This document shows, piece after piece, positions 25,313-58,861 of a stretch of DNA of 62,672 nt. Source of the DNA: an uncultured Candidatus Saccharibacteria bacterium (GTDB lineage Bacteria > Patescibacteriota > Minisyncoccia > Phycocordibacterales > UBA9973); contig CAZWBZ010000004.1 of assembly GCA_964632605.1 (NCBI GenBank), positions 1-62,672 on the forward strand, read 5' to 3'. The stretch's first letter is position 1, and every line of letters begins with the position of its first letter. Both the position numbers and the translations under genes were made by a program. The notes beneath the pieces are model-generated. The model was not told where the DNA came from and ran no database searches. It saw only the letters and a program-made list of their open reading frames with translations.

Positions 25313-25321
25313 TGGTATATT
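25313..25321 (+). promoter_or_regulatory. Extended -10 box (tggtatatt) ending 6 nt before the ATG: leaderless-type promoter
   Basis: TGn+TATATT at 25313-25321; ATG at 25328. Confidence 0.45.
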
Positions 25322-25327
25322 TGCCAT

Positions 25328-27061
25328 ATGCAAATACTTTGGCAATACTTAAAACAATATAAATGGTCAATAGCGCTGGCTTTATTTTTGGCCGCAGTTA
25401 ACCAAGTTTTTTCTTTACTTGATCCTTGGATCTTTCAAAAAGTCATAGATAATTACGCTACAAAACCAAGCCTGTATACAACAGAGCAATTTGTTCGTGG
25501 GGTGGGGGTTTTACTGCTTGCTGCTGTTGGGGTGGCTTTTGTTTCAAGAGTTGCTAAAAACTTTCAAGATTATTTTGTAAATAGAATAACTCAAAAAGTT
25601 GGAACAGAAATGTATACCGATGGTATTAAGGAAACTTTGACCATGCCGTATGAAATGTTCGAAGACGAGCAATCAGGGTCGACTTTGTCTAAAATACAAA
25701 AAGTTCGAACTGACGTAGAAAAATTAATTTCTCTTATAATTAATACTTTGTTTGTTAGCCTGGTTGGCTTTATCTTTGTATTTGTTTACGCTGTTAATAT
25801 TTACTGGGTTATTGCGCCTATTTATTTAGCAGCTGTACCTGTAATTGGAGGTGTTAGTTTTCTCTTATCTAAAAAGATTAAAAAAGTCCAAAAAGATATT
25901 ACAGTAGAAAGTAACGCTTTGGCTGGTAACACCACAGAAACACTTCGCAATATTGAACTTGTAAAAGCTCTTGGGCTAGGCGAGAGAGAAGTAGAAAGAC
26001 TAAAAGCCAACTCTGCTGAAATTCTTAAGCTAGAGCTTAAAAAAGTTAAGTACCTAAGAAGTTTATCTTTTGTCCAAGGCAGTATTGTTAACCTGGTTAG
26101 AACACTGCTTTTAGGTAGCATGCTGTATTTTATATTTACAGGAAAAATTTCCTTTGGAGAATTCTTCTCACTTTGGATTTATTCTTTCTTTCTTTTTGCA
26201 CCTTTGCAAAGTATTGGCGATGTTATTACAAGCTGGAGAGAAGCTCAAGTTTCTCTTGAGAACTTTGCAGAAATTAAAAATAAACCTAAAGAATTTTCCC
26301 CAGAGAGCCCTATTATTGTTAGTACTATAAATGGTATAGAAGCAAAAGACGTTTCTTTTAAGCATCGCCATGCGGAACTAGAAGCCATAAAAGGAATTAG
26401 CTTTTCTGCAAATGCTGGGCAAACTATAGCTTTTGTTGGTCCATCTGGGTCAGGTAAATCTACGCTAATAAAGCTCTTAGTAGGTCTTTATAATTCTCAG
26501 GCAGGGTCTATATCTTATAATGGCAATGATATAAATAAATTTAACAAAGATAATTTACGTAGCCGTATTGGTATTGTGACTCAGGATACTCAATTGTTCT
26601 CCGGGACTCTTTTTGAGAACATTTCTTTTGCTAATAAAGACGCAACCAAAGAGGATTGTATTAATGTTTTAGTAGAAGCTGCTGGTCAAAATATTTTAGA
26701 CAGATCTAGTGATGGTATTGATACTAAAATTGGAGAAAACGGTATAAAGCTTTCTGGCGGGGAGAAGCAGCGTATAGCAATAGCTCGTGCTTTGATACGT
26801 AATCCTGATGTTTTGATATTTGACGAAGCAACCAGTGCTCTGGACTCAATTACCGAAGAGTCTATCAGTAGTACTATTAAATCTTTAGGGGGCGGAAGTA
26901 GAATTACTTTTCTTGTTGCTCATAGACTGGGCACTGTTATGCATGCAGATGTGATTTATGTGCTTAAAGATGGAAAAATTTTCGAGCAAGGTGGTCACGA
27001 AAATCTAATAAAAAATAACAGCCTCTACGCTGCATTATGGAAAGAGCAAAGCGGGGAATAG
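25328..27061 (+). CDS. ABC exporter, fused permease + ATPase (MsbA/MdlB-like half transporter)
   Basis: Six-TM N-terminal half. Walker A GPSGSGKST, signature LSGGEKQR, Walker B VLIFDEATS. TAG stop. Confidence 0.9.
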   Translation: MQILWQYLKQYKWSIALALFLAAVNQVFSLLDPWIFQKVIDNYATKPSLYTTEQFVRGVGVLLLAAVGVAFVSRVAKNFQDYFVNRITQKVGTEMYTDGIKETLTMPYEMFEDEQSGSTLSKIQKVRTDVEKLISLIINTLFVSLVGFIFVFVYAVNIYWVIAPIYLAAVPVIGGVSFLLSKKIKKVQKDITVESNALAGNTTETLRNIELVKALGLGEREVERLKANSAEILKLELKKVKYLRSLSFVQGSIVNLVRTLLLGSMLYFIFTGKISFGEFFSLWIYSFFLFAPLQSIGDVITSWREAQVSLENFAEIKNKPKEFSPESPIIVSTINGIEAKDVSFKHRHAELEAIKGISFSANAGQTIAFVGPSGSGKSTLIKLLVGLYNSQAGSISYNGNDINKFNKDNLRSRIGIVTQDTQLFSGTLFENISFANKDATKEDCINVLVEAAGQNILDRSSDGIDTKIGENGIKLSGGEKQRIAIARALIRNPDVLIFDEATSALDSITEESISSTIKSLGGGSRITFLVAHRLGTVMHADVIYVLKDGKIFEQGGHENLIKNNSLYAALWKEQSGE

Positions 27062-30292: not shown

Positions 30293-30301
30293 TGTTATAA
30301 T
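30293..30301 (+). promoter_or_regulatory. Extended -10 box (tgttataat) ending 6 nt before an in-frame GTG
   Basis: TGn+TATAAT at 30293-30301; GTG at 30308. The track's TTG (30272) lies inside the terminator hairpin, and the ATG (30290) lies immediately upstream of and abutting this -10 element. Confidence 0.4.
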
Positions 30302-30307
30302 ATTTTT

Positions 30308-31339
30308 GTGAAAAAAATCGCTAATTTCTTTAAACACGTTTTTGTTCCACATGAGGGTAATGACTATACTCCTCATTTTTTACGTGAAGGCTCTATAGTT
30401 TTCCTATGTATTTTAGCGTTGGTGGTGTTTTCTTTTTCTGCTTCAACCAAGTTTTATATAAAAAAGACTAATATGACTGGCGCTGTCTTGCCGGCGGTGT
30501 TAGTTGATCTTACTAACAGCGACAGAGCAAGTAGTGGGCTTAGCGGCCTAACTAGAAATAGTGTCCTAGACGAGGCTGCAAGGCTAAAGGCTGAAGATAT
30601 GGCACAGAATCAATACTTTGCTCACAATAGTCCAAATGGTCTAACACCGTGGCATTTTATGGACAAAGCTGGGTATTCTTTTGCTTATGCTGGAGAGAAT
30701 TTGGCTGTGGATTTTACTGAATCTAATGATGTTGAGAATGCATGGCTTCTTTCTCCAAAGCACCGCGCAAATATTATGGACGCTAGATTTACAGAAATAG
30801 GTATTGCTACAGTAGACGCAGTTTTTGAAGGTAAAAATACTACTTTTGTTGTACAAATGTTTGGTAAGCCTATGGTTAAGAATGATTCTTTGGCTGAAAA
30901 TAAAACTAAAGATCTTGAAGCTAAAAAGGATACTAAAACTGTAGAGCCAGTAAAAATTGCCTTAGCTCCTGAAGTTAAAGGTGAGTCTATTGCAGTAGAG
31001 ACAAAAGTTGAAAAAGTTATAGAAAATAAAGAATTTGCTATGGTTAAAAATGTTGAAGCCATCGAAGAAATTCCTGTTTCTGTTGCTGACGCATCTAGCA
31101 CACCAGTAGAGCAAAACTCTTCTTTTTTCGAGAGATTAATTTTTCGTAGCCCTTATATAACTGATATGGTCTACAGAGTTCTAATTTTAGTTGTTTTAAT
31201 TTCTTTAATTTTAATGGTGTTTATTGAGATTAAAAAACAAAAACCTAAAAACATAGCTTATGGAATAATAGTGCTTTTCTTAATAGTTGGTTTGTCTTAT
31301 ATAAACAAAGCTATTTTTATGAGTACTTTGCTTTTTTAG
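30308..31339 (+). CDS. Membrane-anchored CAP/SCP (cysteine-rich secretory protein family) domain protein
   Basis: CAP-like core LDEAARLKAEDMAQNQYFAHNSPNG...YAGENLA...WLLSPKHRANIMD..FTEIGIA. TM helices near both ends. The start is uncertain (30272 TTG, 30290 ATG or 30308 GTG). Confidence 0.65.
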   Translation: MKKIANFFKHVFVPHEGNDYTPHFLREGSIVFLCILALVVFSFSASTKFYIKKTNMTGAVLPAVLVDLTNSDRASSGLSGLTRNSVLDEAARLKAEDMAQNQYFAHNSPNGLTPWHFMDKAGYSFAYAGENLAVDFTESNDVENAWLLSPKHRANIMDARFTEIGIATVDAVFEGKNTTFVVQMFGKPMVKNDSLAENKTKDLEAKKDTKTVEPVKIALAPEVKGESIAVETKVEKVIENKEFAMVKNVEAIEEIPVSVADASSTPVEQNSSFFERLIFRSPYITDMVYRVLILVVLISLILMVFIEIKKQKPKNIAYGIIVLFLIVGLSYINKAIFMSTLLF

Positions 31340-31353: not shown

Positions 31354-31362
31354 TGCTAGAAT
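31354..31362 (+). promoter_or_regulatory. Extended -10 box (tgctagaat) ending 9 nt before the ATG
   Basis: TGn+TAGAAT at 31354-31362; ATG at 31372. Confidence 0.4.
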
Positions 31363-31371
31363 GCGCTATAC

Positions 31372-33036
31372 ATGACCCAGTCTGACGCATTAACTATTTT
31401 AAAAACAGGAGCAAATGTATTTTTGACTGGAGAGCCAGGCAGTGGCAAAACTCATACCTTGAGAGAATATATTAAATACTTGAAAGAATATGGTGTAGAC
31501 CCAGTGGTTACGGCTTCTACTGGTATTGCCGCTACTCATATTGGCGGCGTAACTATACATTCTTGGAGCGGCATTGGCGCCAAAGAATATATTAGCGAAT
31601 ACGAAATAGACAGAATAGCTAGTACCGAACATGTTGCAAAAAGAATCACTAAAGCCAAGGTCTTAATAATAGACGAAGTCTCGATGCTTTCAGGGCGCAC
31701 AATCTATGCAATAGATAATATTATTAAATCTATAAAGGGTAGTAACGAGCCATTTGGTGGCTTACAGGTTGTTTTCGTCGGGGACTTTTTTCAGTTACCA
31801 CCAATAAAAAGAAACGGAGAAGAAGATGACTTTGCTTTTTCTTCACGCTCCTGGAGAGACGCAAAAGTTGTAGTTTGCTATCTTAGCGAACAACATCGTA
31901 ACCAAAATTCTGAGCTTTTCGAAATACTTTCTGCTGCTAGAAATAATAATTTGAAAGATGTTCATTTTGAAATGTTAAGCTCTAGAATAACAAAGTTAGA
32001 TAATCTAAAAAATGAAACTAAATTATTTACACACAATAAAGATGTAGATATTTTAAATAAAGAAAAACTAGAAGCTTTGCCTGGTAAGAAGCATGTCTTT
32101 AATATGATCCACAAAGGCAACCCCACGATGGCGGCTAGTCTTGCACGGGGATGTCTTTCTCCTGAAATTTTGGATTTAAAAATTGGAGCGCGTGTTATGT
32201 GTACCAAAAACAATGTTGCCAGAGGTTTTGTTAATGGGACTCTTGGAACTATTGTTTCTTTTGGGGCTAGCGGCGGCTACCCAATAATTAAGACATTAGA
32301 TGGCAATGAAATTTTAGTCGAGCCTATGACTTGGCAAGTAGAAGTAGATGGCAAGGTAAAAGCGGAAATATTTCAGGTACCGCTGCGTTTAGCGTGGGCT
32401 ATAACAGTGCATAAAAGCCAGGGTATGACTTTGTCTGGCGCAGCTATTGATTTGTCTCATTCTTTTGAGTATGGCCAAGGTTATGTTGCTTTGTCGCGAC
32501 TAACATCATTATCTGGACTTGAACTAATTGGAATAAATAATAATTCTTTAAAGGTCCACCCAACAGTGCTAGACATGGACGACTATTTCCAAACAGAAAG
32601 TTCTAAAAGTGAAGCATTTTTGTTTTCTTCTTCTAAAGCAGAGCTGGATAAATTAGCAGAGCAATTTGTTATTTTTTGCGATGGAAGTTTAAAAAAAGAA
32701 AAAAAACCTCTTGAGAAAAAAACAACAACTCACGAGGCTACAATGAATTTATTAAAACAAGGTTTAGACGTAGATGCTATTTGTAGGGAAAGAAATTTGA
32801 AGCCAGATACTGTTATAGACCATTTATATGTACTACATGAAAGAGGTGACATTACTAACGGTGAATTAATTTCTGTAGTACCTCCTTTTTTAGCTAAAAA
32901 TTTGAATAAAATTTATAAAGCCTTTGATTCTTGCGGGGAAGAGAAGCTTTCTCCTGTTTTTGAGTACCTAAAGGGCGAGTACCCGTATACAGATTTAAAG
33001 CTTTGCCGTATTTTATACAACGCACTATACAAATAG
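31372..33036 (+). CDS. PIF1/RecD-family SF1 helicase with a C-terminal helix-turn-helix region
   Basis: Walker A GEPGSGKTH, Walker B IIDEVSM, VGDFFQLPPI, and the late motif ITVHKSQGMT...YVALSR. Confidence 0.8.
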   Translation: MTQSDALTILKTGANVFLTGEPGSGKTHTLREYIKYLKEYGVDPVVTASTGIAATHIGGVTIHSWSGIGAKEYISEYEIDRIASTEHVAKRITKAKVLIIDEVSMLSGRTIYAIDNIIKSIKGSNEPFGGLQVVFVGDFFQLPPIKRNGEEDDFAFSSRSWRDAKVVVCYLSEQHRNQNSELFEILSAARNNNLKDVHFEMLSSRITKLDNLKNETKLFTHNKDVDILNKEKLEALPGKKHVFNMIHKGNPTMAASLARGCLSPEILDLKIGARVMCTKNNVARGFVNGTLGTIVSFGASGGYPIIKTLDGNEILVEPMTWQVEVDGKVKAEIFQVPLRLAWAITVHKSQGMTLSGAAIDLSHSFEYGQGYVALSRLTSLSGLELIGINNNSLKVHPTVLDMDDYFQTESSKSEAFLFSSSKAELDKLAEQFVIFCDGSLKKEKKPLEKKTTTHEATMNLLKQGLDVDAICRERNLKPDTVIDHLYVLHERGDITNGELISVVPPFLAKNLNKIYKAFDSCGEEKLSPVFEYLKGEYPYTDLKLCRILYNALYK

Positions 33037-33424: not shown

Positions 33425-33437
33425 TATCGCATAAAAC

Positions 33438-33466
33438 AAAACCCCACATTTGTGGGGTTTTGTTTT
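33438..33466 (+). terminator. Intrinsic terminator
   Basis: aaaaccccaca-tt-tgtggggtttt followed by a T-run. Confidence 0.75.
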
Positions 33467-33467
33467 A

Positions 33468-33476
33468 TGTTAGAAT
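33468..33476 (+). promoter_or_regulatory. Extended -10 box (tgttagaat) ending 6 nt before the ATG: leaderless-type promoter
   Basis: TGn+TAGAAT at 33468-33476; ATG at 33483. It directly abuts the upstream terminator. Confidence 0.45.
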
Positions 33477-33482
33477 GTCATC

Positions 33483-34673
33483 ATGAATACAGAAGAACTA
33501 AACCAGAAAGCTGTTGAATACCACAAAGAGCATGGCGGTAAAATCGGTACAGAATTATTGGCCCCACTAAAAGATAAGACAGATTTATCTTTGGCTTATA
33601 GTCCCGGTGTTGGGGCTGTGACTATGGCTATATCTAAAGATTTATCTTTGGCGCATTCTTTAACTTTAAAAGGTCATACTGTTGCTATAATTAGTGATGG
33701 CTCTGCAATACTTGGTTTGGGTAACTTAGGTGCAGAACCTGCGATACCAGTAATGGAAGGCAAAGCCGCACTACTAAAGCATTTTGCTGGTGTTGATGCT
33801 TTTCCTATTTGTTTAACTACTCAGGATCCTGATGAAATTATCGAAACAGTAATGAGAATTGCGCCGGTTTTTGGCGCAATAAATTTGGAAGATATTTCCG
33901 CTCCAAGATGTTTTTATGTAGAAGAAGAGTTGAGAAAAAGATTAAATATTCCCGTAATGCATGATGACCAATGGGGTACAGCAACTGTTGTTTTGGCGGG
34001 GTTAATTAATTCTTTGAAATTAACTAATAAAAAAATAGATGAAATTAAAATAGTTATATCTGGGATTGGGGCAGCAGGTGTTGCTGTATCTCGGCTTCTT
34101 TTTACAGCTGGAGTAAAAAATATTTTGTTTATTGATTCCAAGGGTATCATTACAAAAGACCGCAATGATTTAACAAAAGAAAAAATAGAGCTACTTAACA
34201 AAAGTTCCATGGATTCAAAACCTGGAGAACTAAAGGATGCCCTGGTTTCTGCGGATGTTTTTATTGGGCTTTCTAAGCCAGGAGTTTTAACTATAGAGAT
34301 GGTTAAATCTATGTCAGAAAAGCCTGTAATTTTTGCTTTAGCTAATCCTGTTCCTGAAATAATGCCAAATGATGCGAAAGATGCCGGGGCTTATATTGTG
34401 GCTACTGGTAGATCTGATTTTGCTAACCAAGTAAACAATGCTCTTGTTTTTCCGGGTGTACTAAAAGCAGCACTGGAATTCCCAGGGGCACAGTTTGAAA
34501 ACGAGGTATTTTTAGGCGCAGCAAATGCGTTGGCTGATTTAGTGACTGATTTAAACACTGAAAATATTATTCCAAGCCCATTTGATGATGGTGTTGTGCC
34601 CGCAATTTATAGTGCAACTAAAAAAGTTTTTGAAAAACAGGTTGCAACAAGAGATATAAAAACAGTACAATAG
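33483..34673 (+). CDS. NAD(P)-dependent malic enzyme (short form)
   Basis: LSLAYSPGVG, NLEDISAPRCF, Rossmann motif SGIGAAGVA, and FPGV near the C-terminus. About 396 aa. Confidence 0.85.
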   Translation: MNTEELNQKAVEYHKEHGGKIGTELLAPLKDKTDLSLAYSPGVGAVTMAISKDLSLAHSLTLKGHTVAIISDGSAILGLGNLGAEPAIPVMEGKAALLKHFAGVDAFPICLTTQDPDEIIETVMRIAPVFGAINLEDISAPRCFYVEEELRKRLNIPVMHDDQWGTATVVLAGLINSLKLTNKKIDEIKIVISGIGAAGVAVSRLLFTAGVKNILFIDSKGIITKDRNDLTKEKIELLNKSSMDSKPGELKDALVSADVFIGLSKPGVLTIEMVKSMSEKPVIFALANPVPEIMPNDAKDAGAYIVATGRSDFANQVNNALVFPGVLKAALEFPGAQFENEVFLGAANALADLVTDLNTENIIPSPFDDGVVPAIYSATKKVFEKQVATRDIKTVQ

Positions 34674-35282: not shown

Positions 35283-35288
35283 CAATAA

Positions 35289-35312
35289 ATACCCTTAAAG
35301 GGTATTTTTTTT
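35289..35312 (+). terminator. Hairpin + T8 run after the tRNA
   Basis: atacccttaaagggtat followed by tttttttt. Confidence 0.6.
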
Positions 35313-35432
35313 GTGCTCGAAAGCAAACACCTATGTGTTTGCGTGTAGGAATCGAAAGGCTTTTCGATGTGGATGAGAAATTTTATTTCGAATACACCGA
35401 AAAGGCATACTGTTCCTGTAAGGAAAGATTCC
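35313..35432 (+). other. tRNA-derived remnant or possible small structured RNA between two copies of the terminator
   Basis: Contains an anticodon-loop-like gtttgcg, and GTAGG...GATTCCTAC resembling the tRNA T arm split by ~73 nt. A 9-bp long-range helix pairs gtaggaatc (35345-35353) with gattcctac (35427-35435). Local hairpins include gcaaacac-ctat-gtgtttgc. Confidence 0.35.
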
Positions 35433-35455
35433 TACCCTTAAGGGGTATTTTTTTT
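35433..35455 (+). terminator. Second copy of the hairpin + T-run
   Basis: tacccttaaggggta followed by tttttttt. With the flanking gtgct it forms a ~26-nt direct repeat of 35291-35317. Confidence 0.5.
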
Positions 35456-35456
35456 G

Positions 35457-35465
35457 TGCTATAAT
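35457..35465 (+). promoter_or_regulatory. Extended -10 box (tgctataat) ending 7 nt before the ATG: leaderless-type promoter
   Basis: TGn+TATAAT at 35457-35465; ATG at 35473. Confidence 0.5.
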
Positions 35466-35472
35466 TATCTTA

Positions 35473-38400
35473 ATGAAATTAAACAGCAGGGTTAAATTTG
35501 CATTTAAATTAGCGTCTCTGGCGTTTTGTTTTTTGTTTATAATTTTTTACAAAATAATACCTGCTTTTAGTTCGTCTCCTTATATTGCATCTGACGTTAT
35601 TGGCCAAGGGGCTTTTAATCAAAATTTATCAGACAATTTAAACCCTAATCCAAATGGATTCAGTTCTCCTTACGGGGTTGTTTTGGATAATGTTAATCAT
35701 CGTCTTTGGGCTATAGATAAAAGTAATAGCCGTGTATTAGGCTTTAATTTAAATTCGGACAATACTCCACTAGATGATACTGCTGACTATGTCTTCGGGC
35801 AAGGTGGTAATTTAAATACAGGATACAGTAATAACCCTAATACTGGGGACGCTTCTGCTGATACTTTTAGTCAACCAGAAGGCATAACGATGGATGTAGA
35901 CAATCATCGTCTTTGGGTTTCGGATACAAACAATAGCCGTGTCTTGGGGTTTAATTTAAATTCAGACGGTACTCCTGCTGATACAACTGCTGACTATGTC
36001 TTTGGGCAAGCTGGTCTTTTTGATACAGCTTCAGCTTCTATCTCTGCTTCTGGTTTAGCAAATCCTTCTGGATTGGTTTTAGATAGAATTAACCATCGTC
36101 TTTGGGTTTCTGATAATGGTAACGAAAGAATAATTTATTTTAATCTTGATTCCAGCGGGGTACCACTAGATGATACTGCTGACTATGTTTTAGGTCAGGC
36201 TGGAAGTTTTGTGACTCAGGCGGGATGTCCTCCTTTTAATGCAACTAAAGTTTGTCAGTCTCGTGAACTTGCAATTGATTATACTAACCACCGTCTCTTT
36301 GTCTCGAATAGTTATTTAGATAGAGTTATCGCTTTTGATTTAGACAGTAGTAATGTGCCGCTGGATGACACTGCTGATTATGTATTTGGGCAATCGGGCA
36401 TATTTACTACATTTGGATGTCATTCTCCAGCAACGGCGGACAAGCTATGTTTTGCTAATGGTTTGGCTGTAGATGAAATCAATAATCGTCTTTTTGTTTC
36501 TGATACTAATAATAACCGTGTATTAATTTTTAATCTTGGTGTAGGCGGAGCTCCTACTGACACAACTGCTGACTATGTCTTTGGGCAAGGCGGTCTTTTT
36601 ACAGAAGAAGGGTGGACTGGATCAACTAACGAAACGCTAGGTGGCCCTCAGGGTATGGCGCTAGACCCAGTGAATCATTATTTGTATGTTGCCGAACAAA
36701 GCTCTAATAGATTAATAGGTTTTAGTTTAAATAGTTCTAATTTGCCGGACGATACAGTTGGAGATTTTGTCTTTGGTCAAAATTCTGATTTTAATTTAAG
36801 TAACCAAAACAGTAGATCTAGTCCTAATGCTTTTGGATTTAATGGACCCAACGCTAATTTATTAGACAGTGTTAATCATAAGATGTTTGTTGTTGATACT
36901 AACAATAATCGCGTCTTAATTTTTAACTTGGATAGTAATAATAATTTTGTCGATAAGACTGCTGACTATGTAATTGGTCAAGATGATTTTGATTACAATG
37001 ATTTTTGTGGAACTATTTCCGAGTCTTATTTGTGTGAACCTTCTGATTTAGCATTAGATAGTACAAACAACCGTCTTTGGGTTGTTGACCAGGGATACAG
37101 TAGAATACTGCAGTATAATTTAGACAGCTCTAACGCTCCATTGGATTCCATCGCTGACGCTGTTCTGGGTCAAGGAGACGAAGGGGATGTTTTGGACTTT
37201 ATTAGTGCTAATGCTGGACAAGGGAATCATCAACTTAATAACGTATCTAATATTGCGCTAGACTATTTAAACCATCGATTATTTGTTTCGGATACTGGTA
37301 ACAATAGAGTTGTCTTTTTTAACTTAGACAGCACTAATAATATAGTAGACAATGTTATTGATGGGGTTATTGGTCAACCTGATTTAGATGGTCTTAATAC
37401 AAATTGTAATTTAGGTGCATCTACTGACATAAACACATTGTGTACCCCAAAAGGCCTAGCTATAGACCAGATTAATTCAAGATTATTCGTTTCAGATAAT
37501 GATAACAATCGCGTGCTTGTTTTTAATATAAATCCAGATACTTTTACAAATGGAGAAGATGCTAGCTACATTTTAGGTCAACTTGATCAATTTGAGGGCG
37601 GAGGAAACCAAGGGTCTGGATCAATTATTGTTCAAAGTTCACTAAGAGAGCCTAGGGGTTTATCGTATAATCCTAATACAGGTAGACTTTATATCGTAGA
37701 TGAGAGAAACGGTAGAGTTGTTGTTTATAATGTAAATAGTTCTATTATTGCAACAGGTATGAATGCTGAAGCAGTACTTGGAACAGAAGATTTTTCTTCT
37801 TCTAACGAACGTACCAGTAACTATGAATTCGATACACCTTATGGTGTTAGTATTGATACTACTTCAAACAAAGTATATGTTGCTGATAGAAGTAATAACC
37901 GCATAATGCAATTTAATTTAGTAAATATTACTAAAGAAAGTTTGGCTAATGGAACGCAAGGTTCTTCTTACGGTGATACTGTGACTTCTTCTGGATCTCA
38001 AGGGACTGTATCCTACAGTATTATTTCTGGTTCTTTACCTGGTGGTCTAAATATTAATTCTGCTTCGGGGGCAATTTCTGGAACACCTAGTTCTTCCGGA
38101 AGTTATACTTTTGCAGTTGCAGCTGCTGATGATAATGGGGCTGTTGGTAGCTTCGTTGATTATAAGTCTTACACAATAAATATTGCATCTTCTGGTGGCG
38201 GAGGTTCAGTACCTGTCTCTATTTTGCAGTCAATGAGTAATGCTCTTCAAAATAAAATAGAGACCCCAGATACTAAAACAGACAAATCCCCAGAAGAAAT
38301 AAAAAATGTAGACCCAAAAATAGAAAACATACCAACTACTAAGAAATTCTCCGAGTTTTTAAGAATTTCTAATAACAAAACAGACGTAAAAGATTTACAA

Positions 38401-38622
38401 ATATTTTTAAATTCTCAAGGATACTTTGTCTCTAGATCTGGTCCTGGGTCTCCTGGAAATGAAACAAGCTTTTTTGGTAAAAAAACAAAAGCTGCCCTGG
38501 CTTTGTACCAAGAATTATATAGAGATGATATCTTAAAGCCATTAAATCTTAAAAAGGGTACAGGTTTCTTTGGGCCCTATACAATGCGTTTTGTTAATGC
38601 TATCTTAGAGAAGCAAAACTAA
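35473..38622 (+). CDS. Secreted NHL-repeat (double six-bladed propeller) protein with an Ig-like domain and a C-terminal peptidoglycan-binding domain
   Basis: About 12 units of ADYV.GQ...NHRLWVSDxxNxRVLxFNL, visible in DNA as a ~195-bp periodicity. LPGGLNINSASGAISGTPS is a putative-Ig motif. The C-terminus VKDLQIFLNSQGY...FFGKKTKAALALYQ is PG-binding-like. Confidence 0.8.
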   Translation: MKLNSRVKFAFKLASLAFCFLFIIFYKIIPAFSSSPYIASDVIGQGAFNQNLSDNLNPNPNGFSSPYGVVLDNVNHRLWAIDKSNSRVLGFNLNSDNTPLDDTADYVFGQGGNLNTGYSNNPNTGDASADTFSQPEGITMDVDNHRLWVSDTNNSRVLGFNLNSDGTPADTTADYVFGQAGLFDTASASISASGLANPSGLVLDRINHRLWVSDNGNERIIYFNLDSSGVPLDDTADYVLGQAGSFVTQAGCPPFNATKVCQSRELAIDYTNHRLFVSNSYLDRVIAFDLDSSNVPLDDTADYVFGQSGIFTTFGCHSPATADKLCFANGLAVDEINNRLFVSDTNNNRVLIFNLGVGGAPTDTTADYVFGQGGLFTEEGWTGSTNETLGGPQGMALDPVNHYLYVAEQSSNRLIGFSLNSSNLPDDTVGDFVFGQNSDFNLSNQNSRSSPNAFGFNGPNANLLDSVNHKMFVVDTNNNRVLIFNLDSNNNFVDKTADYVIGQDDFDYNDFCGTISESYLCEPSDLALDSTNNRLWVVDQGYSRILQYNLDSSNAPLDSIADAVLGQGDEGDVLDFISANAGQGNHQLNNVSNIALDYLNHRLFVSDTGNNRVVFFNLDSTNNIVDNVIDGVIGQPDLDGLNTNCNLGASTDINTLCTPKGLAIDQINSRLFVSDNDNNRVLVFNINPDTFTNGEDASYILGQLDQFEGGGNQGSGSIIVQSSLREPRGLSYNPNTGRLYIVDERNGRVVVYNVNSSIIATGMNAEAVLGTEDFSSSNERTSNYEFDTPYGVSIDTTSNKVYVADRSNNRIMQFNLVNITKESLANGTQGSSYGDTVTSSGSQGTVSYSIISGSLPGGLNINSASGAISGTPSSSGSYTFAVAAADDNGAVGSFVDYKSYTINIASSGGGGSVPVSILQSMSNALQNKIETPDTKTDKSPEEIKNVDPKIENIPTTKKFSEFLRISNNKTDVKDLQIFLNSQGYFVSRSGPGSPGNETSFFGKKTKAALALYQELYRDDILKPLNLKKGTGFFGPYTMRFVNAILEKQN

Positions 38623-39351: not shown

Positions 39352-39360
39352 TGGTATACT
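39352..39360 (+). promoter_or_regulatory. Extended -10 box (tggtatact) ending 10 nt before the pilM ATG
   Basis: TGn+TATACT at 39352-39360; ATG at 39371. Confidence 0.4.
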
Positions 39361-39370
39361 AATATCATCT

Positions 39371-40453
39371 ATGGCACGTTCCAAATTATTTCAATTTTTC
39401 CCAATACCTCGGTATATTGTGATGCCATCTTTTGGTCTTGAAATATCAGAGAGAACCGTAAAATATGTCGAAATGCGTGAGACAGGAAATGGTCTTGTTG
39501 TTGGAGATTACGGTCTAGAGCATATTCCTGTTGGAGTAGTTGAAAAAGGTATTGTCGTTGACCCAGAAAAACTAATACCAGTTCTTGAATTAATTCGTAA
39601 AACAAAAAAAATAGAATCTGTGCGTATTTCTATACCAGAAGAACAGGTTTATACTTTCCAGACCGAAGTCGAAATGGTTCCTGGTATCGATTTACGAGAC
39701 ACCATTATGCTTGGTCTCGAAGGTTTTATTCCCGTACCTGCTGATACTGTTGAATTTGATTATGACGTAATAGAGCAAGTTGGCAATAAAGCCAAAGTCC
39801 AAGTATCTGCATCAGAGCAAAAGGTAATCGACGGGTATGTCGATGCTTGCAGCGCTGCTGGAATGGAAGTTGTGTCTTGTGAATACGAATCCCAGGCTTT
39901 AGCACGCGCTATAACTAAACCAAATGAACCCAGTGTTATCTTTGTGGTTGATATCGGGCACGCTTCTACTACAGCTTCTGTTGTTCAGGATGGGATGGTT
40001 GTTTCTTCTAGTACAATAGAGCGAGGCGGGGAAGAAGTCACTACGGCTTTAGCTGCTGTTTTGAATTTAGATAATAAAAAAGCCGAAGAAGTAAAACATA
40101 AGATTGGTATGAACGGCAGCGGCGAATATGCCGAAATGCCAGGCCTACTAAAGACAGCTTATATACCATTGTTTGATGAAATTATAAAACAGTATAATTC
40201 GTGGCTTTTGTATATCAGAGAGAGATCTAGTATGTATCGCCCAATTGATTATATTCAAATAGTTGGGACGGAAGCTTTGACCCCAGGATTCCTTGATCTA
40301 TTCCAAGCATCTTTTCATAAACCTGTATCTCTGGCTGACGTTTGGACAAGAATAGAAGCGGTTAGTGTTAGCGTGCCTAAAATTCATTTCGATGATTCTG
40401 TTATTTATGGTACGGCTATAGGGTTAGCGTTAGGAGCATTTGAAGTATGATAA
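39371..40453 (+). CDS. pilM: Type IV pilus assembly ATPase-like protein PilM; the end is extended by one codon under code 25
   Basis: Actin-like PilM pattern (GLEISERTVKYVEM, VDIGHASTT). The track ends at TGA 40448-40450, which is followed in frame by TAA 40451-40453. Confidence 0.8.
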
Positions 40454-43879: not shown

Positions 43880-44386
43880 TTATTTCTTATAAATTACGAA
43901 ATCAAAATCAAATTCGTGGTCATCATCTTTAGAATTGTGTGTTCGAGAAATTTCCTTAAAAATATTTTTGTCCCATTCTGGAAAGAATGTATCAGCATAA
44001 GGGAAGACTCCGTTAACTTCGGTAATATAAAGCGTGTCTAAATAGGGAAGAGCTTGGCGATAAACTTCGCCGCCGCCTATTACAAAAACTTCGTCTTTGT
44101 AGTCAGAATTTTCTTTTTGGAATTCTGTAGCTTTTTCAATTGCGTCTTCTATATTTTTCGCAACAATTACGTTTTCATATACCCAGTCGTCTTGGCTGGT
44201 TATAACTATAGATTTACGTTTCGGCAAGGGTTTGCCGATAGATTCAAAAGTCTTACGCCCCATTATCATAATAGAGCCAGTTGTGTGGTCTTTAAAATAG
44301 TTAAAATCCTTAGGCAGGTGCCATAGCAATTGACCGGCTTTCCCAAGTTCTCGGTTTTGGCCAATAGCGGCAATAAGTGAAATCAT
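43880..44386 (-). CDS. folA: Dihydrofolate reductase
   Basis: MISLIAAIGQNRELGKAGQLLWHLP..D...F...T.G..IIMGRKTFESIG. The ATG at 44386 is preferred over the track's TTG at 44404. Confidence 0.85.
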   Translation of the reverse strand: MISLIAAIGQNRELGKAGQLLWHLPKDFNYFKDHTTGSIMIMGRKTFESIGKPLPKRKSIVITSQDDWVYENVIVAKNIEDAIEKATEFQKENSDYKDEVFVIGGGEVYRQALPYLDTLYITEVNGVFPYADTFFPEWDKNIFKEISRTHNSKDDDHEFDFDFVIYKK

Positions 44387-44392
44387 GAGCTG

Positions 44393-44398
44393 ATTATA
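44393..44398 (-). promoter_or_regulatory. TATAAT box ending 6 nt before the folA ATG (minus strand): leaderless-type promoter
   Basis: The minus strand reads gcgaTATAATcagctcATG. Confidence 0.4.
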
Positions 44399-44443
44399 TC
44401 GCAAAATAGGGTTATTTTTCTACTATTCTATAAGATTGGTCCA

Positions 44444-46771: not shown

Positions 46772-46811
46772 AATAAAGACGCTACTATTACACGTAGCGT
46801 CTTTATTTTTG
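46772..46811 (+). terminator. Intrinsic terminator after mscL
   Basis: aataaagacgctac-tattacac-gtagcgtctttatt plus a T-run. Confidence 0.75.
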
Positions 46812-46818
46812 CTATAAT
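46810..46818 (+). promoter_or_regulatory. Extended -10 box (tgctataat) ending 8 nt before the ATG
   Basis: TGn+TATAAT at 46810-46818; ATG at 46827. It abuts the terminator T-run. Confidence 0.45.
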
Positions 46819-46826
46819 ACAAATAT

Positions 46827-48140
46827 ATGAAAAACATACTTCGCACAATGGACAGCAAGGTTGCCACCTTGTTTATTATTGGAATTACAGCTTTTCTCTT
46901 GGCTATGGCACCAATGATTTATGGGCCAATTGTAAGATCTTTTGCCATGCTGGATCAAAACACTTTGTTTGATATTTTTGTACTGGTTGGTGTTCTTGGT
47001 TTAGTTTTTTATGTTGCAATTGAAGCTAAAAAGCATTTACATATTCCATATGCTGTAACATCTATCATATTTGGTATTGCGGGTTATGTTCTTTGGAATA
47101 CTCTGTTTACAATAGATTCTAATTTGTATTTAGTCGTGGGTACTGCAGCTACTGCTTTTGCTGTGTTCCGTCGCGGACTAATGGTAGATAATAACGCCCC
47201 TAGAAAAATATTTTGGAAAAATATATTTTCCGGGATAGTAATAGCTATCGTTTTGTTTGTTGTTACAAACTTTTGCTTAAAAATGTTTTTCCCAGATTTA
47301 TCTGTGGCTATGAATTATTCAGCCAGTGCGATACTTCTACTTTTGGGTGCACATGTCCCTGGAAAATTACTTTCTAATATGGGCACAGTTCGTTTCTCTT
47401 ACGACATGACTTTGCTTGTTATTATTTATAACTTCCTACTATTTAGTTCTCGTGTTTTGCCAGACAGTATTTTAAATATCTCAGCAAACTTGGCTATATA
47501 TAGCTCAGCTATCACTAGTAGTGTGTATGGAGTTTTAGTCGGTCTTCTTGGTGCTTATCTTTTACATAGACATCATAATATGTGGGTAGCAGCTGGGCAG
47601 TCTAATAAAGAAAACCTCTATACTTTGACTTTGCTTTCTATAATCTTAGCCATTTCTTTAATGGTTGGGGCAAATCCATTTATTGCTGCAGGTATCATGG
47701 GTCTACTTGTTACAATTCGTGACTCAAAACAAAACCCAGAAGAACATGTTCTTGCAAAAGCTGAATCTATTTTTGTTATGGTAGCCTTTTTGATTATTGG
47801 GGCAAGTATTCCATTTAGCGCCCTTGTAGCATTACTTCCATTTGGTGGAGTAGTTACTCTTTTTGTAACAATTATTGCAATGGTTTCTATTGCTATGCTT
47901 TTTACTCTTTTTGGGAAAATTGGTTTTCTTCCTCATGCACACATAAGATCTTATATATTGGAAGTTTATAATCGTCACGATAGTGCCATTATGGTGGGGT
48001 CTTTGGCTTTGTTTGCGGCGGCTTATCTAAGAATGGAGTATATTTTAATAATTACTTTAGTAATAGTTTTCTCTATTGCAGTAGAATATCTTTTCCCTTG
48101 GGTTATTAGACTTGTTAAAAGTGATTCTGTACAAGAATAA
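46827..48140 (+). CDS. Polytopic (~12 TM) membrane protein, possibly cation/proton-antiporter-like
   Basis: Long hydrophobic ORF. The family assignment is not secure from sequence inspection alone. Confidence 0.45.
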   Translation: MKNILRTMDSKVATLFIIGITAFLLAMAPMIYGPIVRSFAMLDQNTLFDIFVLVGVLGLVFYVAIEAKKHLHIPYAVTSIIFGIAGYVLWNTLFTIDSNLYLVVGTAATAFAVFRRGLMVDNNAPRKIFWKNIFSGIVIAIVLFVVTNFCLKMFFPDLSVAMNYSASAILLLLGAHVPGKLLSNMGTVRFSYDMTLLVIIYNFLLFSSRVLPDSILNISANLAIYSSAITSSVYGVLVGLLGAYLLHRHHNMWVAAGQSNKENLYTLTLLSIILAISLMVGANPFIAAGIMGLLVTIRDSKQNPEEHVLAKAESIFVMVAFLIIGASIPFSALVALLPFGGVVTLFVTIIAMVSIAMLFTLFGKIGFLPHAHIRSYILEVYNRHDSAIMVGSLALFAAAYLRMEYILIITLVIVFSIAVEYLFPWVIRLVKSDSVQE

Positions 48141-48711: not shown

Positions 48712-48722
48712 AAATTTGCTAA

Positions 48723-48753
48723 AAATCCCTCTCCTGAATTAGGAGAGGGATTT
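48723..48753 (+). terminator. Intrinsic terminator
   Basis: aaatccctctcct-gaatt-aggagagggattt. Confidence 0.75.
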
Positions 48754-48756
48754 CTC

Positions 48757-48785
48757 TTGCTATTTATGGCTTCTTATGTTACTTT
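48757..48785 (+). promoter_or_regulatory. Candidate promoter of the rpsL-rpsG-fusA operon
   Basis: TTGCTA (48757-48762), 17-nt spacer ending in TG, TACTTT (48780-48785). Confidence 0.3.
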
Positions 48786-48793
48786 GTATTCAC

Positions 48794-48813
48794 AAGCGCG
48801 CATTGCGCGTTTT
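48794..48813 (+). promoter_or_regulatory. GC-rich hairpin + T-run in the rpsL leader (possible attenuator or protein-binding site)
   Basis: aagcgcgc-att-gcgcgttt is an unusually GC-rich element in an AT-rich leader. Confidence 0.3.
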
Positions 48814-48867
48814 AATAGTAGTGTACGGTTATTCGAATATCTGGCGGGTAAAAGTACTTAAGAATAA

Positions 48868-51980: not shown

Positions 51981-52020
51981 ATATAGTAAAAACCCGCTGA
52001 AAAGCGGGTTTTTACTATAT
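51981..52020 (+). terminator. Intrinsic terminator after fusA
   Basis: atatagtaaaaacccgct-gaaa-agcgggtttttactatat is a perfect 18-bp stem. Confidence 0.8.
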
Positions 52021-52030
52021 TACCTAAATG

Positions 52031-52039
52031 TGGTAATAT
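52031..52039 (+). promoter_or_regulatory. Extended -10 box (tggtaatat) ending 8 nt before the ATG
   Basis: TGn+TAATAT at 52031-52039; ATG at 52048. Confidence 0.45.
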
Positions 52040-52047
52040 AACAGGGT

Positions 52048-53610
52048 ATGAAAGATAAATTAATCTCTTTTTTTGCCCCTAAACTGGACTTTTTGAAGAA
52101 AAAATGGAAAATGGTAGCTTTAATTGCAGTTGTTCTGCTTATTGTAATCTCTAAAATTATTCCTGATGGTTTTGACCCAAAGACAGAAATTGTTGAAGAA
52201 GTTAAAGTTCAAAATTTACAAAAAACTGTAAAAGCAACAGGGGATGTTACTTCTGTAGTTAACCTGGAATTGTCGTTTAATAATCCTGGACGTGTGCAAA
52301 GTGTTAATGCAACACTTGGTCAAAAAGTTTCAAAAGGTCAAATACTGGCTAGCTTAAATGCTGGTTCAGAACTTGGGCAACTTAATCAAGCTTATGGAGC
52401 ATTAAAATCAGCACAGGCAGCACTAGCAAGAACAATAGAGGGTTCAACATCTGAAGAAGTTAAAGTTGCAGAAGTATCTCTTGAAAATGCAAAACGTTCT
52501 TATACTAATACTGAAAAACTGCAAAATACTTTGGTTAAAAATGCTAAAGCAAATTTGTATTCTAGTGGTCTTACTGCTGTGTCTAGTCTGACAAATTCTA
52601 GTACAACTGCACCTACTATTAGTGGTACTTATTCTGGTGCAAACGAAGATGAATATACTGTGAATACTTATCCAACAGGAGCTGGTAGCTACGCTTCTTA
52701 TACTTCAACATCAGGAGATAGTGGTTCTTTCTCTATTAGTACAAATGGTCCAATTGCTTTAGGTAGCCAGGGCTTGTATATACAATTTGCTACATCTACT
52801 TCAGGCTCTAATGAAACATGGAAAGTAAAAATTCCAAACACTGCAAGCGTATCTTACAGTGCAAACCTAAGTATTTTAAATTCTGCAATGGAAACAAAGT
52901 CTTTAGCGTTAGAGACAGCTCAAGCCGCAGTAGATAGTGCCGAGGCAAACCTGGGTCTTAAGAAAGCAGCAGCTCGTCCGTCTGATATTGCAGCACGTGA
53001 AGCTGATGTTTTAATAGCGCAAGGCCGCGTACAAGCAGCCCAAGGTATTTACGAAGATAAAATAATCCGCGCTCCAATGTCTGGTTATATTACAAAGCTT
53101 GATATTAGTGCTGGAGAGAATGTAGAGTCTAAAAAAATAGCTATCGTTCTTCAAGATAAAGGCAGTCTATTTCTAGAAGCTGACATAAACGAAGCAGATA
53201 TCGGTCTTATTAATATTGGCCAAGTTGTAACATTTACAGTGGATACTTTGGGTTCAAGTGATATCTTTACAGCAGAGGTAACTCATATTGATGGGTCTCC
53301 TACAAAAGACGGCAATATTGTAAACTACAAAATCAAAGCAAAAATCGTAACAGGAATGGATAAGATTAAAAATGGTTCTACTGCAAATCTTTCTATCTTG
53401 ATTCAAGAAAAAGCAAATGTAGTTGTTGTTCCAAATAGAACTGTTTATTCAAACGAAGATGGTTCTCGCTATGTTATGCTTGTAACTAATGAAAAATCAG
53501 CAAAGACTTCAAATACTCCTGTTACTGTTGGTTTCCAAGGGGACGGCGCTTTGACTGAAATTTTAAACGGCCTAACAGGTAGTGAAAAAGTTTTGTTTAA
53601 GACAAAATAA
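52048..53610 (+). CDS. HlyD/MacA-family membrane-fusion (periplasmic adaptor) protein with a Ser/Thr-rich insertion
   Basis: N-terminal TM helix. Lipoyl-like halves (GRVQSVNATLGQKVSKGQILASLN / GYITKLDISAGENV). A coiled-coil region is interrupted by a ~100-aa S/T/G-rich segment. Confidence 0.75.
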   Translation: MKDKLISFFAPKLDFLKKKWKMVALIAVVLLIVISKIIPDGFDPKTEIVEEVKVQNLQKTVKATGDVTSVVNLELSFNNPGRVQSVNATLGQKVSKGQILASLNAGSELGQLNQAYGALKSAQAALARTIEGSTSEEVKVAEVSLENAKRSYTNTEKLQNTLVKNAKANLYSSGLTAVSSLTNSSTTAPTISGTYSGANEDEYTVNTYPTGAGSYASYTSTSGDSGSFSISTNGPIALGSQGLYIQFATSTSGSNETWKVKIPNTASVSYSANLSILNSAMETKSLALETAQAAVDSAEANLGLKKAAARPSDIAAREADVLIAQGRVQAAQGIYEDKIIRAPMSGYITKLDISAGENVESKKIAIVLQDKGSLFLEADINEADIGLINIGQVVTFTVDTLGSSDIFTAEVTHIDGSPTKDGNIVNYKIKAKIVTGMDKIKNGSTANLSILIQEKANVVVVPNRTVYSNEDGSRYVMLVTNEKSAKTSNTPVTVGFQGDGALTEILNGLTGSEKVLFKTK

Positions 53611-55591: not shown

Positions 55592-55622
55592 ACAAACATA
55601 CAAGGTAATTATTCAGAAAAGT

Positions 55623-56408
55623 ATGTTTAATATGTTCGAAAATAAAAAAATAAGCCAAGGCTTGGTCATTGTGACTATTGTGTCTCTATGTCTATTCTTT
55701 TTGGCTGGTGCAAAAAATTGGTCTAACGGTTCATCTAAAGATAAAATGCCAGCAACTATTACAGTGTCTGGAACAGGGGAATTTTTTGCCGTACCTGATA
55801 CTGCAACATTTTCTTTCTCTGTAGAAAAAGAAGGTAAGACTCAAAAAGAGGCATCTGATGCTGGAGCTACAGTTATAAATACAATAATCGACGCTCTAAA
55901 GAAAGATTACGGTATGAGTGATACAAAAGATTTAAAAACTACAAATCTTTCTATCTCACCTAAATACGAATACTCAGCTCCATGTTACGGATATAAATGT
56001 CCTGTTTCAAATCCAAAAATCTCTGGATACACATTTAGTCAAAGTGTAACTGTAAAAGTTAAAGATCTTGATAAGGCTGGAGAAATCACTGCAAAATTAG
56101 CAGAATGGGGTGCTAGTAATGTATACGGTCCAGACTTTACACTAGCTGACGAAGACGCAGCAAACGGCAAAGCTCGCCAAGATGCTATCGTAGATGCAAA
56201 GGTAAAAGCTGCAACACTAGCAAAACAACTAGGTGTAAAACTTGGCAGTATCCAAAGCTTTTCTGAAAACGGAGGAGGAGCATATCCTATGGCTTACCGT
56301 GCTGATGCTATGATGGCTAGTGGTATGGAGAAATCTATTGCACCTCAAATGCCAACAGGAGAGAACAAATACCAATCTAACGTAACTATCGTTTACGAAA
56401 TCCGCTAA
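55623..56408 (+). CDS. SIMPL/DUF541-domain secreted protein
   Basis: ITVSGTGE..AVPD.A.FSFSV............A.....VI..L and the terminal YQSNVTIVYEI pattern. Confidence 0.7.
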   Translation: MFNMFENKKISQGLVIVTIVSLCLFFLAGAKNWSNGSSKDKMPATITVSGTGEFFAVPDTATFSFSVEKEGKTQKEASDAGATVINTIIDALKKDYGMSDTKDLKTTNLSISPKYEYSAPCYGYKCPVSNPKISGYTFSQSVTVKVKDLDKAGEITAKLAEWGASNVYGPDFTLADEDAANGKARQDAIVDAKVKAATLAKQLGVKLGSIQSFSENGGGAYPMAYRADAMMASGMEKSIAPQMPTGENKYQSNVTIVYEIR

Positions 56409-56428
56409 TAAATATAAAGTTTTTTTCT

Positions 56429-56453
56429 AAAACCCCCTGATTTAGGGGGTTTT
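56429..56453 (+). terminator. Intrinsic terminator
   Basis: aaaaccccct-gattt-agggggtttt. Confidence 0.8.
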
Positions 56454-56460
56454 AGTTTGT

Positions 56461-56489
56461 TTGACTTTTGGGGTTATTTAGGGTAGTAT
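56461..56489 (+). promoter_or_regulatory. Candidate sigma70 promoter of secE-nusG-rplK
   Basis: TTGACT (56461-56466), 17-nt spacer, TAGTAT (56484-56489). Confidence 0.4.
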
Positions 56490-56545
56490 ATTCACATAAG
56501 GCCCTAGCGGGCTTTTAAAATTGCCCGTTAATTTTTTATACACTT

Positions 56546-56731: not shown

Positions 56732-56753
56732 TAGTTTTAATTACACTTAATAT

Positions 56754-57820: not shown

Positions 57821-57825
57821 CATAT

Positions 57826-57848
57826 AAAACCCTCTTATCGAGGGTTTT
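57826..57848 (+). terminator. Intrinsic terminator after rplK
   Basis: aaaaccctc-ttatc-gagggtttt followed by a T-rich run. Confidence 0.75.
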
Positions 57849-57865
57849 ATTGTTTTTTATTAGCA

Positions 57866-57874
57866 TGGTATAAT
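57866..57874 (+). promoter_or_regulatory. Extended -10 box (tggtataat) ending 7 nt before the ATG
   Basis: TGn+TATAAT at 57866-57874; ATG at 57882. Confidence 0.45.
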
Positions 57875-57881
57875 TGTGTAT

Positions 57882-58664
57882 ATGGAAAATAAAGTAGTTT
57901 TAAATATCAAAGAGATTTTCTCTTATTCTTTTGAAAAGGCAAAGAAGAACTTTCTTCCTTTTGCTGCATCAATTTTTGCTTTTATGGTTGTTGCAATGAT
58001 CGAGCCTAATGAAAAGACTCATTCGTTTAGAACCCTAAGAAGTCTTATTAGCCTCTTTGGGTCTGTTTATCTTTCAATGGCAATGTATAATGCTGTGTTT
58101 AAGATTATAAAAGAAGAAGCTATAACTGTTAAAGATTTCTTTACTTGGCCTGTTAATGGATTTAAAACACTTTGGGCTGAAATTGTTTCAAAGCTAATAA
58201 TAGCACCTGTATTTTTTGCAATGATTATTATTGCGATGACTATTGGTTTTACAGGACTTTCTGGAATAGCTAAAGCCATAGTTGCTGCTGTCTTTATAGG
58301 AGCTTTGTTTGCAGTAATGCTGCATTTAACTTTGCGCCTAATGTTTGCAAAGTATTTTGCTTTAGAAAAAGGTTATGGAGTTAAAGAAAGTATCAAAGCT
58401 TCTTGGTCATCCACAAAAGGGAATACAGGCCGAATTTTATGGGTCTCTATTGTTGGGATGGGTATTGTTATCTTGGGAATATTAGCCCTTTTGGTTGGTC
58501 TTTTCTTGGCTATTCCAATAGTTGTTATCTCTCAAATGGTTATGTATAAAAAGCTAACTAATAGTAGTTTGGTATCTTCAGAAATAGCTGGGGGTTCTAT
58601 TTTACCAGAAGTTCAGCCACTTGAATTAGAAGCTAATCCGTCAGTAATTGACGCACAAAATTAA
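57882..58664 (+). CDS. Polytopic membrane protein, function unknown
   Basis: ORF with ~5 hydrophobic helices. The ATG at 57882 is preferred over the track's GTG at 57876, which sits just downstream of the -10 box in the gap before the ATG. Confidence 0.5.
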   Translation: MENKVVLNIKEIFSYSFEKAKKNFLPFAASIFAFMVVAMIEPNEKTHSFRTLRSLISLFGSVYLSMAMYNAVFKIIKEEAITVKDFFTWPVNGFKTLWAEIVSKLIIAPVFFAMIIIAMTIGFTGLSGIAKAIVAAVFIGALFAVMLHLTLRLMFAKYFALEKGYGVKESIKASWSSTKGNTGRILWVSIVGMGIVILGILALLVGLFLAIPIVVISQMVMYKKLTNSSLVSSEIAGGSILPEVQPLELEANPSVIDAQN

Positions 58665-58665
58665 T

Positions 58666-58821: not shown

Positions 58822-58861
58822 ACTTTGTTTCAGTTTTTTGGAAAAAAATAAAAAAATCTCT

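Follow-up and report, generated by a model that had tools for sequence, protein, structure and literature searches.

The window, by which the whole stretch of DNA analysed here is meant (62,672 nucleotides, contig CAZWBZ010000004.1 of assembly GCA_964632605.1, deposited as an uncultured Candidatus Saccharibacteria bacterium), is the complete contig C4 of a 47-contig, 757-kb metagenome-assembled genome (MAG). At position 35433 of the window a terminator-like hairpin, an extended -10 promoter box and the start codon of a long gene follow one another directly, and -10 boxes that abut start codons in the same way recur along the window. These boxes, the starts that they precede and their bearing on translation initiation are the subject of this analysis. 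The box-start modules of the window are the following.

25313..25330, plus strand: TGGTATATT, 6 nt, ATG of an ABC exporter gene
30293..30310, plus strand: TGTTATAAT, 6 nt, GTG of a CAP-domain protein gene
31354..31374, plus strand: TGCTAGAAT, 9 nt, ATG of a PIF1-like helicase gene
33429-33470: 19-bp bidirectional terminator hairpin (-29.1 kcal/mol, z -8.3), overlapping the TGTTAGAAT box
33430..33485, plus strand: module with TGTTAGAAT (33468-76), 6 nt, ATG (33483) of the malic enzyme gene
35433-35447, plus strand: terminator-like hairpin TACCCTTAAGGGGTA, followed by eight T at 35448-55
35457-65, plus strand: extended -10 TGCTATAAT, a 7-nt gap, then ATG 35473
35473-38622, plus strand: gene for an NHL-repeat/He_PIG protein of 1049 aa, its start served by the TGCTATAAT box at 35457-65
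39352..39373, plus strand: TGGTATACT, 10 nt, ATG of pilM
44384..44401, minus strand: TATAAT without TG (44393-98), 6 nt, ATG 44386 of folA
46772..46829, plus strand: terminator hairpin 46772-46807, TGCTATAAT (46810-18), 8 nt, ATG 46827 of a gene for a 437-aa protein for which no Pfam match was found
51989..52050, plus strand: hairpin AAAAACCCGC-TGAAAA-GCGGGTTTTT, TGGTAATAT (52031-39), 8 nt, ATG of a HlyD-family gene
57824..57884, plus strand: terminator 57824-50 after rplK, TGGTATAAT (57866-74), 7 nt, ATG of a membrane protein gene

When the sequence was re-read, all ten -10 boxes listed in the initial annotation (nine on the plus strand and that of folA) were found at the positions and with the gaps given there. 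Terminators had also been placed before five of the boxes; four of these five were detected by a terminator scan (at 33430-69, 35433-47, 46772-807 and 57824-50) and the fifth (near 51989-52012) by folding (-15.9 kcal/mol, z = -5.2). The TGGTATATT box of the ABC exporter gene lies inside the last codons of the preceding gene and is therefore read as an internal promoter. The start of folA at ATG 44386 is backed by the alignment of the Pfam DHFR model, which begins at residue 1 of the protein read from that codon.

The terminator of a tRNA-Arg gene (35287-35315, followed by TGTGCT) has a near-copy at 35433-35459, the two sharing 28 consecutive aligned columns with one mismatch, and only the second of these copies runs on into TATAAT. 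The approximately 110 nt that separate the copies are predicted, within positions 35284-35465, to form a stable fold (149 nt, -43.5 kcal/mol, z -4.3) that had no match in Rfam; this region may encode a small RNA or may be the leftover of a module duplication.

Spacing, motif and gene context across the genome

Genome-wide statistics were confined to the main bin of the MAG, which comprises 25 contigs (652 kb) of 33-40% GC, and were based on 636 open reading frames of at least 80 aa with the first ATG of each taken as the start. Contigs C8, C17, C23-C26, C28 and C30-C34, among others, have a GC content of 48-68% and were excluded from all statistics; these contigs, several of which are short, are probably binning contaminants.

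A genome-wide search for the box at a fixed distance from start codons, which the initial annotation had proposed as a check on its reading, revealed enrichment far beyond chance. The hexamer TANNNT begins exactly at position -12 in 148 of the 636 first ATGs (23.3%), with approximately 30 occurrences at each of the adjacent offsets, whereas it is found at that position upstream of 1.5% of internal in-frame ATGs and 2.9% of all ATGs. A second test, anchored on the promoter motif and carried out on both strands without gene calls, gave the same result, with an ATG at gap 6 after 48 of 262 TGNTANAAT sites, against a background of two to five per gap; the counts at gaps 7, 8, 9 and 10 were 12, 25, 9 and 9, respectively. 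No enrichment of GTG or TTG was found downstream of the TGNTANAAT sites, and the scrambled control motif TGNATNAAT gave a flat distribution of ATGs. The exact module TGNTATAAT-N6-ATG occurs 31 times in this genome, as compared with zero for the reversed control. Restricting the count to boxes with 80 or more open codons downstream leaves, at gap 6, 58 cases of ATG and one of GTG, the latter being the CAP-domain gene start at 30308. The genome-wide optimum is a sharp gap of 6, with gaps 7-10 forming a tail, and these longer gaps imply leaders of about 1-4 nt.

Alignment of the 148 sites yielded a logo with T at -17 (67%), R at -16 (74%), T at -15 (65%) and G at -14 (56%), followed by TAtAaT at -12 to -7; information in the -35 region does not exceed 0.13 bits. 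We take this motif to be the TRTGn extended -10 promoter that is typical of low-GC bacteria, a promoter type defined by a TG one base before the hexamer and by a dispensable -35 element. A scan for classical -35/-10 promoters found 70 and 38 sites, compared with 67 and 51 expected from shuffles, and hence no enrichment, because the promoters in question are without a -35 element.

The frequency of the box depends on gene context. Expressed as the proportion of boxes at gaps 6-8 (and 5-10) in excess of background, it amounts to 0.28-0.30 for all genes, 0.43-0.48 for divergently transcribed genes and 0.38-0.40 for genes that follow a same-strand neighbour with at least 35 nt upstream, and falls to 0.09-0.14 at junctions of less than 15 nt. 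The layout is used by about 28-30% of genes and by 43-48% of the genes that stand first in a transcription unit, both values being lower bounds. Of the 42 divergent gene pairs with spacers of 20-110 nt, 23 are boxed on both sides and 14 on a single side; a divergent spacer of 22-50 nt that carries two boxes is too short to accommodate a further promoter. Two divergent pairs, on MAG contigs C14 (near 10885) and C7 (near 33625), are just 22 nt apart, and in each of these spacers a single palindromic AGTATACT can be read on either strand as a -10 box, 6-8 nt ahead of the respective ATG.

The compact packing of terminator, promoter and start codon that had been described for the window was encountered throughout the genome. 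Of 106 genes that have a box and a same-strand gap of 35 nt or more, 30 also have a hairpin with a T-run, and in these 30 modules, the elements of which fit within about 20-70 bp, the median distance from the end of the stem to the ATG is 35 nt.

Conservation of the arrangement was analysed in related genomes, which do not constitute independent samples. In eight genomes of the genus, including that of the window, TGGTATACT precedes the ATG of pilM by 8-11 nt, and most order-level relatives with no more than 27-35% identity at the protein level have TATAAT or TATACT as a box 7-14 nt before the ATG. The box of the malic enzyme gene is retained at gap 6-8 in seven of 11 loci. For the CAP-domain gene, TGTTATAAT or TGGTATAGT followed by 6 nt and GTG was found in all five loci, those of the window and of four related genomes, while the ATG at 30290 is replaced in the related genomes by GTG, TCG or TTA/TTG. 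The GTG start at 30308, as originally assigned, is supported because box, spacing and GTG are kept and the ATG at 30290 is not; it is the sole GTG among the 59 start codons at gap 6 genome-wide. In the orthologues of all three genes, box and spacing persist while the flanking sequences diverge.

The organism belongs to the Patescibacteria, or candidate phyla radiation (CPR), and within them to the Nomurabacteria (Parcubacteria) group; Candidatus Nomurabacteria bacterium RIFCSPLOWO2_01_FULL_33_17 is among the closest relatives by pilM. The Saccharibacteria labels carried by genus-level relatives, which are third-party annotation (TPA) assemblies, look like automated misassignments. The relatives have genomes of 0.5-0.9 Mb and 16S rRNA genes with insertions. 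The exact TGNTATAAT-N6-ATG module is present in 19-69 copies per genome in the genus, in 0-24 copies elsewhere in the family and order, and in 0-46 copies (median about 5) in 120 other Patescibacteria; reversed controls gave 0-3. The layout is therefore phylum-wide and quantitative, and is strongest in this genus.

Shine-Dalgarno signals and operon-internal starts

The initial annotation had stated that most starts in the window are without a GGAGG-like sequence, and this holds for the genome as a whole. GGAG at positions -20 to -4 is not enriched in box-less genes (six of 338, as compared with eight of 338 in a control region), G is under-represented ahead of starts, and the genome-wide distribution of ATGs downstream of GGAG, AGGA or GAGG is flat, without a peak after any of these Shine-Dalgarno (SD) type motifs.

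The 3' end of 16S rRNA, the inspection of which had likewise been suggested, was read in relatives, two of the same genus and nine of the same order, and it is for these that loss of the anti-SD sequence was established. In the two same-genus genomes (G005 and G008) the 16S 3' end reads GGAAUUAAUCAAAUUGAUA or …GCUGUUCGUGGAAUUAAUCAAAUUGAUA, without CCUCC, and CCUCC is missing from the 16S 3' end in nine of nine order-level relatives. All 28 other Patescibacteria with readable 16S 3' ends, one of which is from the same class, keep CCUCC (ACCUCCUUU). The 16S gene of G008 (within contig C3, 12500-17400) is broken after about position 1390 (…CUUGUACUCAC) and resumes with the 3' exon after an insertion of approximately 1 kb or longer, as is typical of rRNA genes in the CPR.

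A link between loss of the anti-SD and the leaderless layout was considered and is only partly supported. When 100-kb samples were compared, boxes at -12 stood to background in a ratio of 2.9-7.2 for the order that lacks the anti-SD and of 0.8-4.0 elsewhere. The exact module is also plentiful in some genomes outside the order (up to 46 per genome), while all 28 of the 16S ends read outside the order, which represent a separate sample, keep CCUCC. The layout is thus not strictly linked to anti-SD loss.

Further components of the translation apparatus were surveyed. No match to ribosomal protein uL1 (PF00687) was found in the MAG, which is rated 100% complete, although the same profile matched 14 of 14 control genomes. 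In the window, a terminator and an unrelated membrane protein gene come after rplK (L11, 57386-57820), in the usual place of rplA; this gene order is evidence that uL1 is truly missing rather than merely unassembled. For bS21 there was a sub-threshold match only.

Operon-internal genes display a distinct pattern at their starts. Among 194 tight same-strand junctions, the most common stop-to-start spacing is 1 nt (TAA/TAG-T-ATG, 50 junctions), with spacings of 2, 3 and 4 nt accounting for 10, 20 and 11 junctions, respectively. The overlaps that are usual in bacteria are almost absent, ATGA being found four times and TAATG once. Examples of the TAA-T-ATG junction in the window are located at 41664 and 54897. 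U is present at -1 in 74% of the tight junctions, as compared with 35% of internal ATGs, and positions -11 to -2 consist of about 50% A and less than 12% G. In 100-kb samples from the order without the anti-SD, spacers of 1-4 nt outnumber -4/-1 overlaps by 75 to 20, whereas the corresponding numbers in eight other Patescibacteria are 36 and 42; the shift is partly explained by the rarity of TGA stops. T at -1 was also considered as a signature of transcription start (Y-1/R+1), and this was rejected, since box-less genes and tight junctions have the same T.

Leaderless initiation and alternative explanations

The -10 boxes abutting start codons probably indicate leaderless or near-leaderless mRNAs, with reinitiation without SD pairing taking place besides; we assign this reading, which is drawn from the sequence, a probability of about 0.8. 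A hexamer at -12 to -7 from the A of the ATG is in the canonical register for transcription starting at that A, and the TRTG extension is a feature of promoters, not of ribosome-binding sites. Register, TRTG motif, preference for ATG, operon position, short spacers, conservation and the absence of SD sites all support the leaderless starts suggested by the initial annotation, and from these observations, together with the absence of the anti-SD in relatives, we infer both where transcription starts and how ribosomes are loaded.

In the mechanism that we propose, sigma-70-type extended -10 promoters (TRTGnTATAAT, the -35 being weak or absent) would start RNA at the A of the ATG or 1-4 nt before it. 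By analogy with leaderless mRNAs elsewhere, a ribosome that carries initiator tRNA would attach directly to the AUG at the 5' end, with no SD pairing, the latter being unavailable because CCUCC has disappeared from the 16S rRNA of the genus and order. Translation of operon-internal genes would probably proceed through termination-reinitiation or ribosome entry on unstructured RNA, without SD pairing, as is suggested by the UAA-U-AUG spacing, the U at -1 and the A-rich, G-poor positions -11 to -2. The U at -1 may lengthen codon-anticodon pairing to A37 of the initiator tRNA. We suggest more tentatively, at slightly less than even odds, that in this clade SD/anti-SD pairing has been fully replaced by two modes, leaderless initiation at first genes and U(-1)AUG termination-reinitiation across a 1-4-nt spacer at internal ones. 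If so, this would be a natural, wholly SD-free bacterial translation system, and its leaderless part would extend in varying strength across all Patescibacteria.

Several points weigh against leaderless initiation. The transcription start positions are predictions from sequence, the gene starts were set by a crude first-ATG rule, and the anti-SD status of this genome is inferred from its relatives, since the MAG contains no 16S gene. The hairpin at 35433 is weak by itself (-6.6 kcal/mol, z -0.28). T at -1 is equally common at starts with a box (67%) and without one (70%). Moreover, IF3, which disfavours leaderless initiation in E. coli, is retained, as is a 4-domain S1 protein of the kind that serves leadered mRNAs.

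Alternatively, the TATAAT-like element might work in RNA, as an AU-rich translational enhancer or S1 site on leadered transcripts that begin further upstream. Such a role would agree with the A/U-rich, G-poor regions upstream of all genes, operon-internal ones included, with the presence of a gene for the 4-domain S1 protein, and with the use of non-SD upstream signals by Bacteroidota-type genomes (group B; PMC6028130). We nevertheless consider it unlikely, since the TRTG extension and the exact -12 to -7 register are promoter features, the box is mostly missing at tight junctions (excess of 0.09-0.14, against 0.43-0.48 for divergent genes), where a translational signal would be most needed, and the modules that follow terminators, like the 22-50-nt spacers with two boxes, are too small to hold another promoter. 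A replacement pairing, in which the 16S 3' tail in its altered form (…AAUUAAUCAAAUUGA) would base-pair with a newly evolved motif upstream in the mRNA, appears less probable still. The tail is retained and semi-conserved (UUCAAUUU / AUCAAAUU) throughout the order, and helix h26, which contacts the SD helix, is reported to be conserved in Parcubacteria (PMC9297842), both of which would favour such a pairing; however, neither 5-mers nor 6-mers that complement the tail, taken in three versions, exceed reversed controls at -22 to -2, 5-mers matching the family tail occur in 24% of tight-junction genes as compared with 35% in the control, and the k-mers that are enriched are merely AATAA, ATAAT and TAAT.

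An artefact of composition or annotation is the most improbable of these alternatives. TANNNT is abundant in AT-rich DNA, and the rule of taking the first ATG after a stop enriches in-frame TAA/TAG, for instance at -12, where about a third of the hexamers do start with TAA or TAG; the minor peaks at -6, -4 and -1 are indeed trivial consequences of conditioning on ATG or on stops. Yet hexamers beginning with TAT or TAC alone (about 93) exceed the totals at the adjacent in-frame offsets (36-37), the promoter-anchored test, which is free of gene calls, gave 48 against 2-5, the reversed pattern gave none against 31, the arrangement is conserved in orthologues, and the enrichment outlasted every control applied. 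Leaderless or near-leaderless transcription from the abutting boxes thus remains the preferred reading.

The closest known counterparts are the genomes of GeneMarkS-2 group C, which includes Mycobacterium tuberculosis, Streptomyces, Corynebacterium and Deinococcus deserti, and in which a Pribnow box is located 6-8 nt ahead of operon-leading genes, leaderless operons are predicted to make up 25-50% of the total, and the remaining genes rely on SD sites in a dual model (Lomsadze et al. 2018, PMC6028130). As in group C, a Pribnow box is located here at a fixed distance before first genes, the start codon is predicted to be at the 5' end of the mRNA, and AUG is preferred over GUG (58 ATG and one GTG at gap 6). 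Unlike in group C, there is no SD signal for the remaining genes, the genus and order no longer possess the anti-SD, promoters follow the low-GC TRTGn extended -10 pattern, and the genome is a CPR genome of only about 0.7 Mb. A term search of the text of the group C paper found no mention of Parcubacteria or of any candidate phylum (PMC6028130).

Loss of CCUCC and uL1 has been reported for a subgroup of Parcubacteria, in which SD helices probably do not form; the mode of initiation was not addressed (Tsurumaki et al. 2022, RNA 28:1041, PMC9297842), and the word 'leaderless' does not occur in that paper. The present genome resembles this subgroup in that uL1 is missing and Nomurabacteria fall within Parcubacteria; the 16S tails of its relatives are without CCUCC. 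The promoter-ATG layout and the junction pattern go beyond what was described for the subgroup and supply the missing half, that of initiation. Similarity is also evident to Bacteroidota and GeneMarkS-2 group B, where SD motifs are unused and upstream regions are A-rich and G-poor. Bacteroidota keep the anti-SD, unlike the relatives of this genome, and whereas group B has the same non-SD motif before internal genes, the box here is specific to first genes and is recognizable as a promoter by its TG extension. The layout is thus a known one, here in an unusually pure, SD-free form.

A search of the accessible literature found no paper that joins 'leaderless' with CPR, Patescibacteria or Parcubacteria, matches for Saccharibacteria being judged by their titles and abstracts. 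A transcription-start data set for TM7x reportedly exists. The layout offers a concrete, testable answer to how initiation proceeds after the published loss of the anti-SD, and a phylum with frequent leaderless genes bears on the question of whether leaderless initiation is ancestral or a product of genome reduction. Heterologous expression and genetics in CPR bacteria must also reckon with promoters that double as the sole start signal.

Leadered genes and start-codon corrections

A few genes had been singled out in the initial annotation for long leaders and hence as candidates for leader-based regulation. Long upstream regions were indeed found for rpsL (156 nt), nrdA (381 nt) and the RRM gene (136 nt), and glyA is located in a divergent spacer of 147 nt. 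Three of the regions considered have the following coordinates.

48712-48867: upstream region of rpsL, 156 nt
56409-56753: region before nusG, 345 nt
58665-59045: upstream region of nrdA, 381 nt

The 345 nt before nusG probably hold secE and a -35/-10 promoter at 56461-89. Searches of Rfam at gathering and E-value thresholds identified no leader or riboswitch upstream of rpsL, nrdA, glyA or the RRM gene, and the upstream regions of nrdA and rpsL and the region before nusG had no Rfam match even at E values up to 1. Among these upstream regions, that of nrdA is the strongest candidate for a regulatory RNA not yet described. In the stretch 55592-55625, a consensus TGTTATAAT is located 31 nt before the ATG of a SIMPL/DUF541 gene, for which a leader of about 24 nt without an SD site is predicted.

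Gene calling in CPR/Patescibacteria usually assumes SD-type signals, and a model based on the -10 box at -12 and on UAUG junctions would improve the placement of starts. Two examples in the window are the start of folA, at ATG 44386 instead of TTG 44404, and that of the CAP-domain gene, at GTG 30308.

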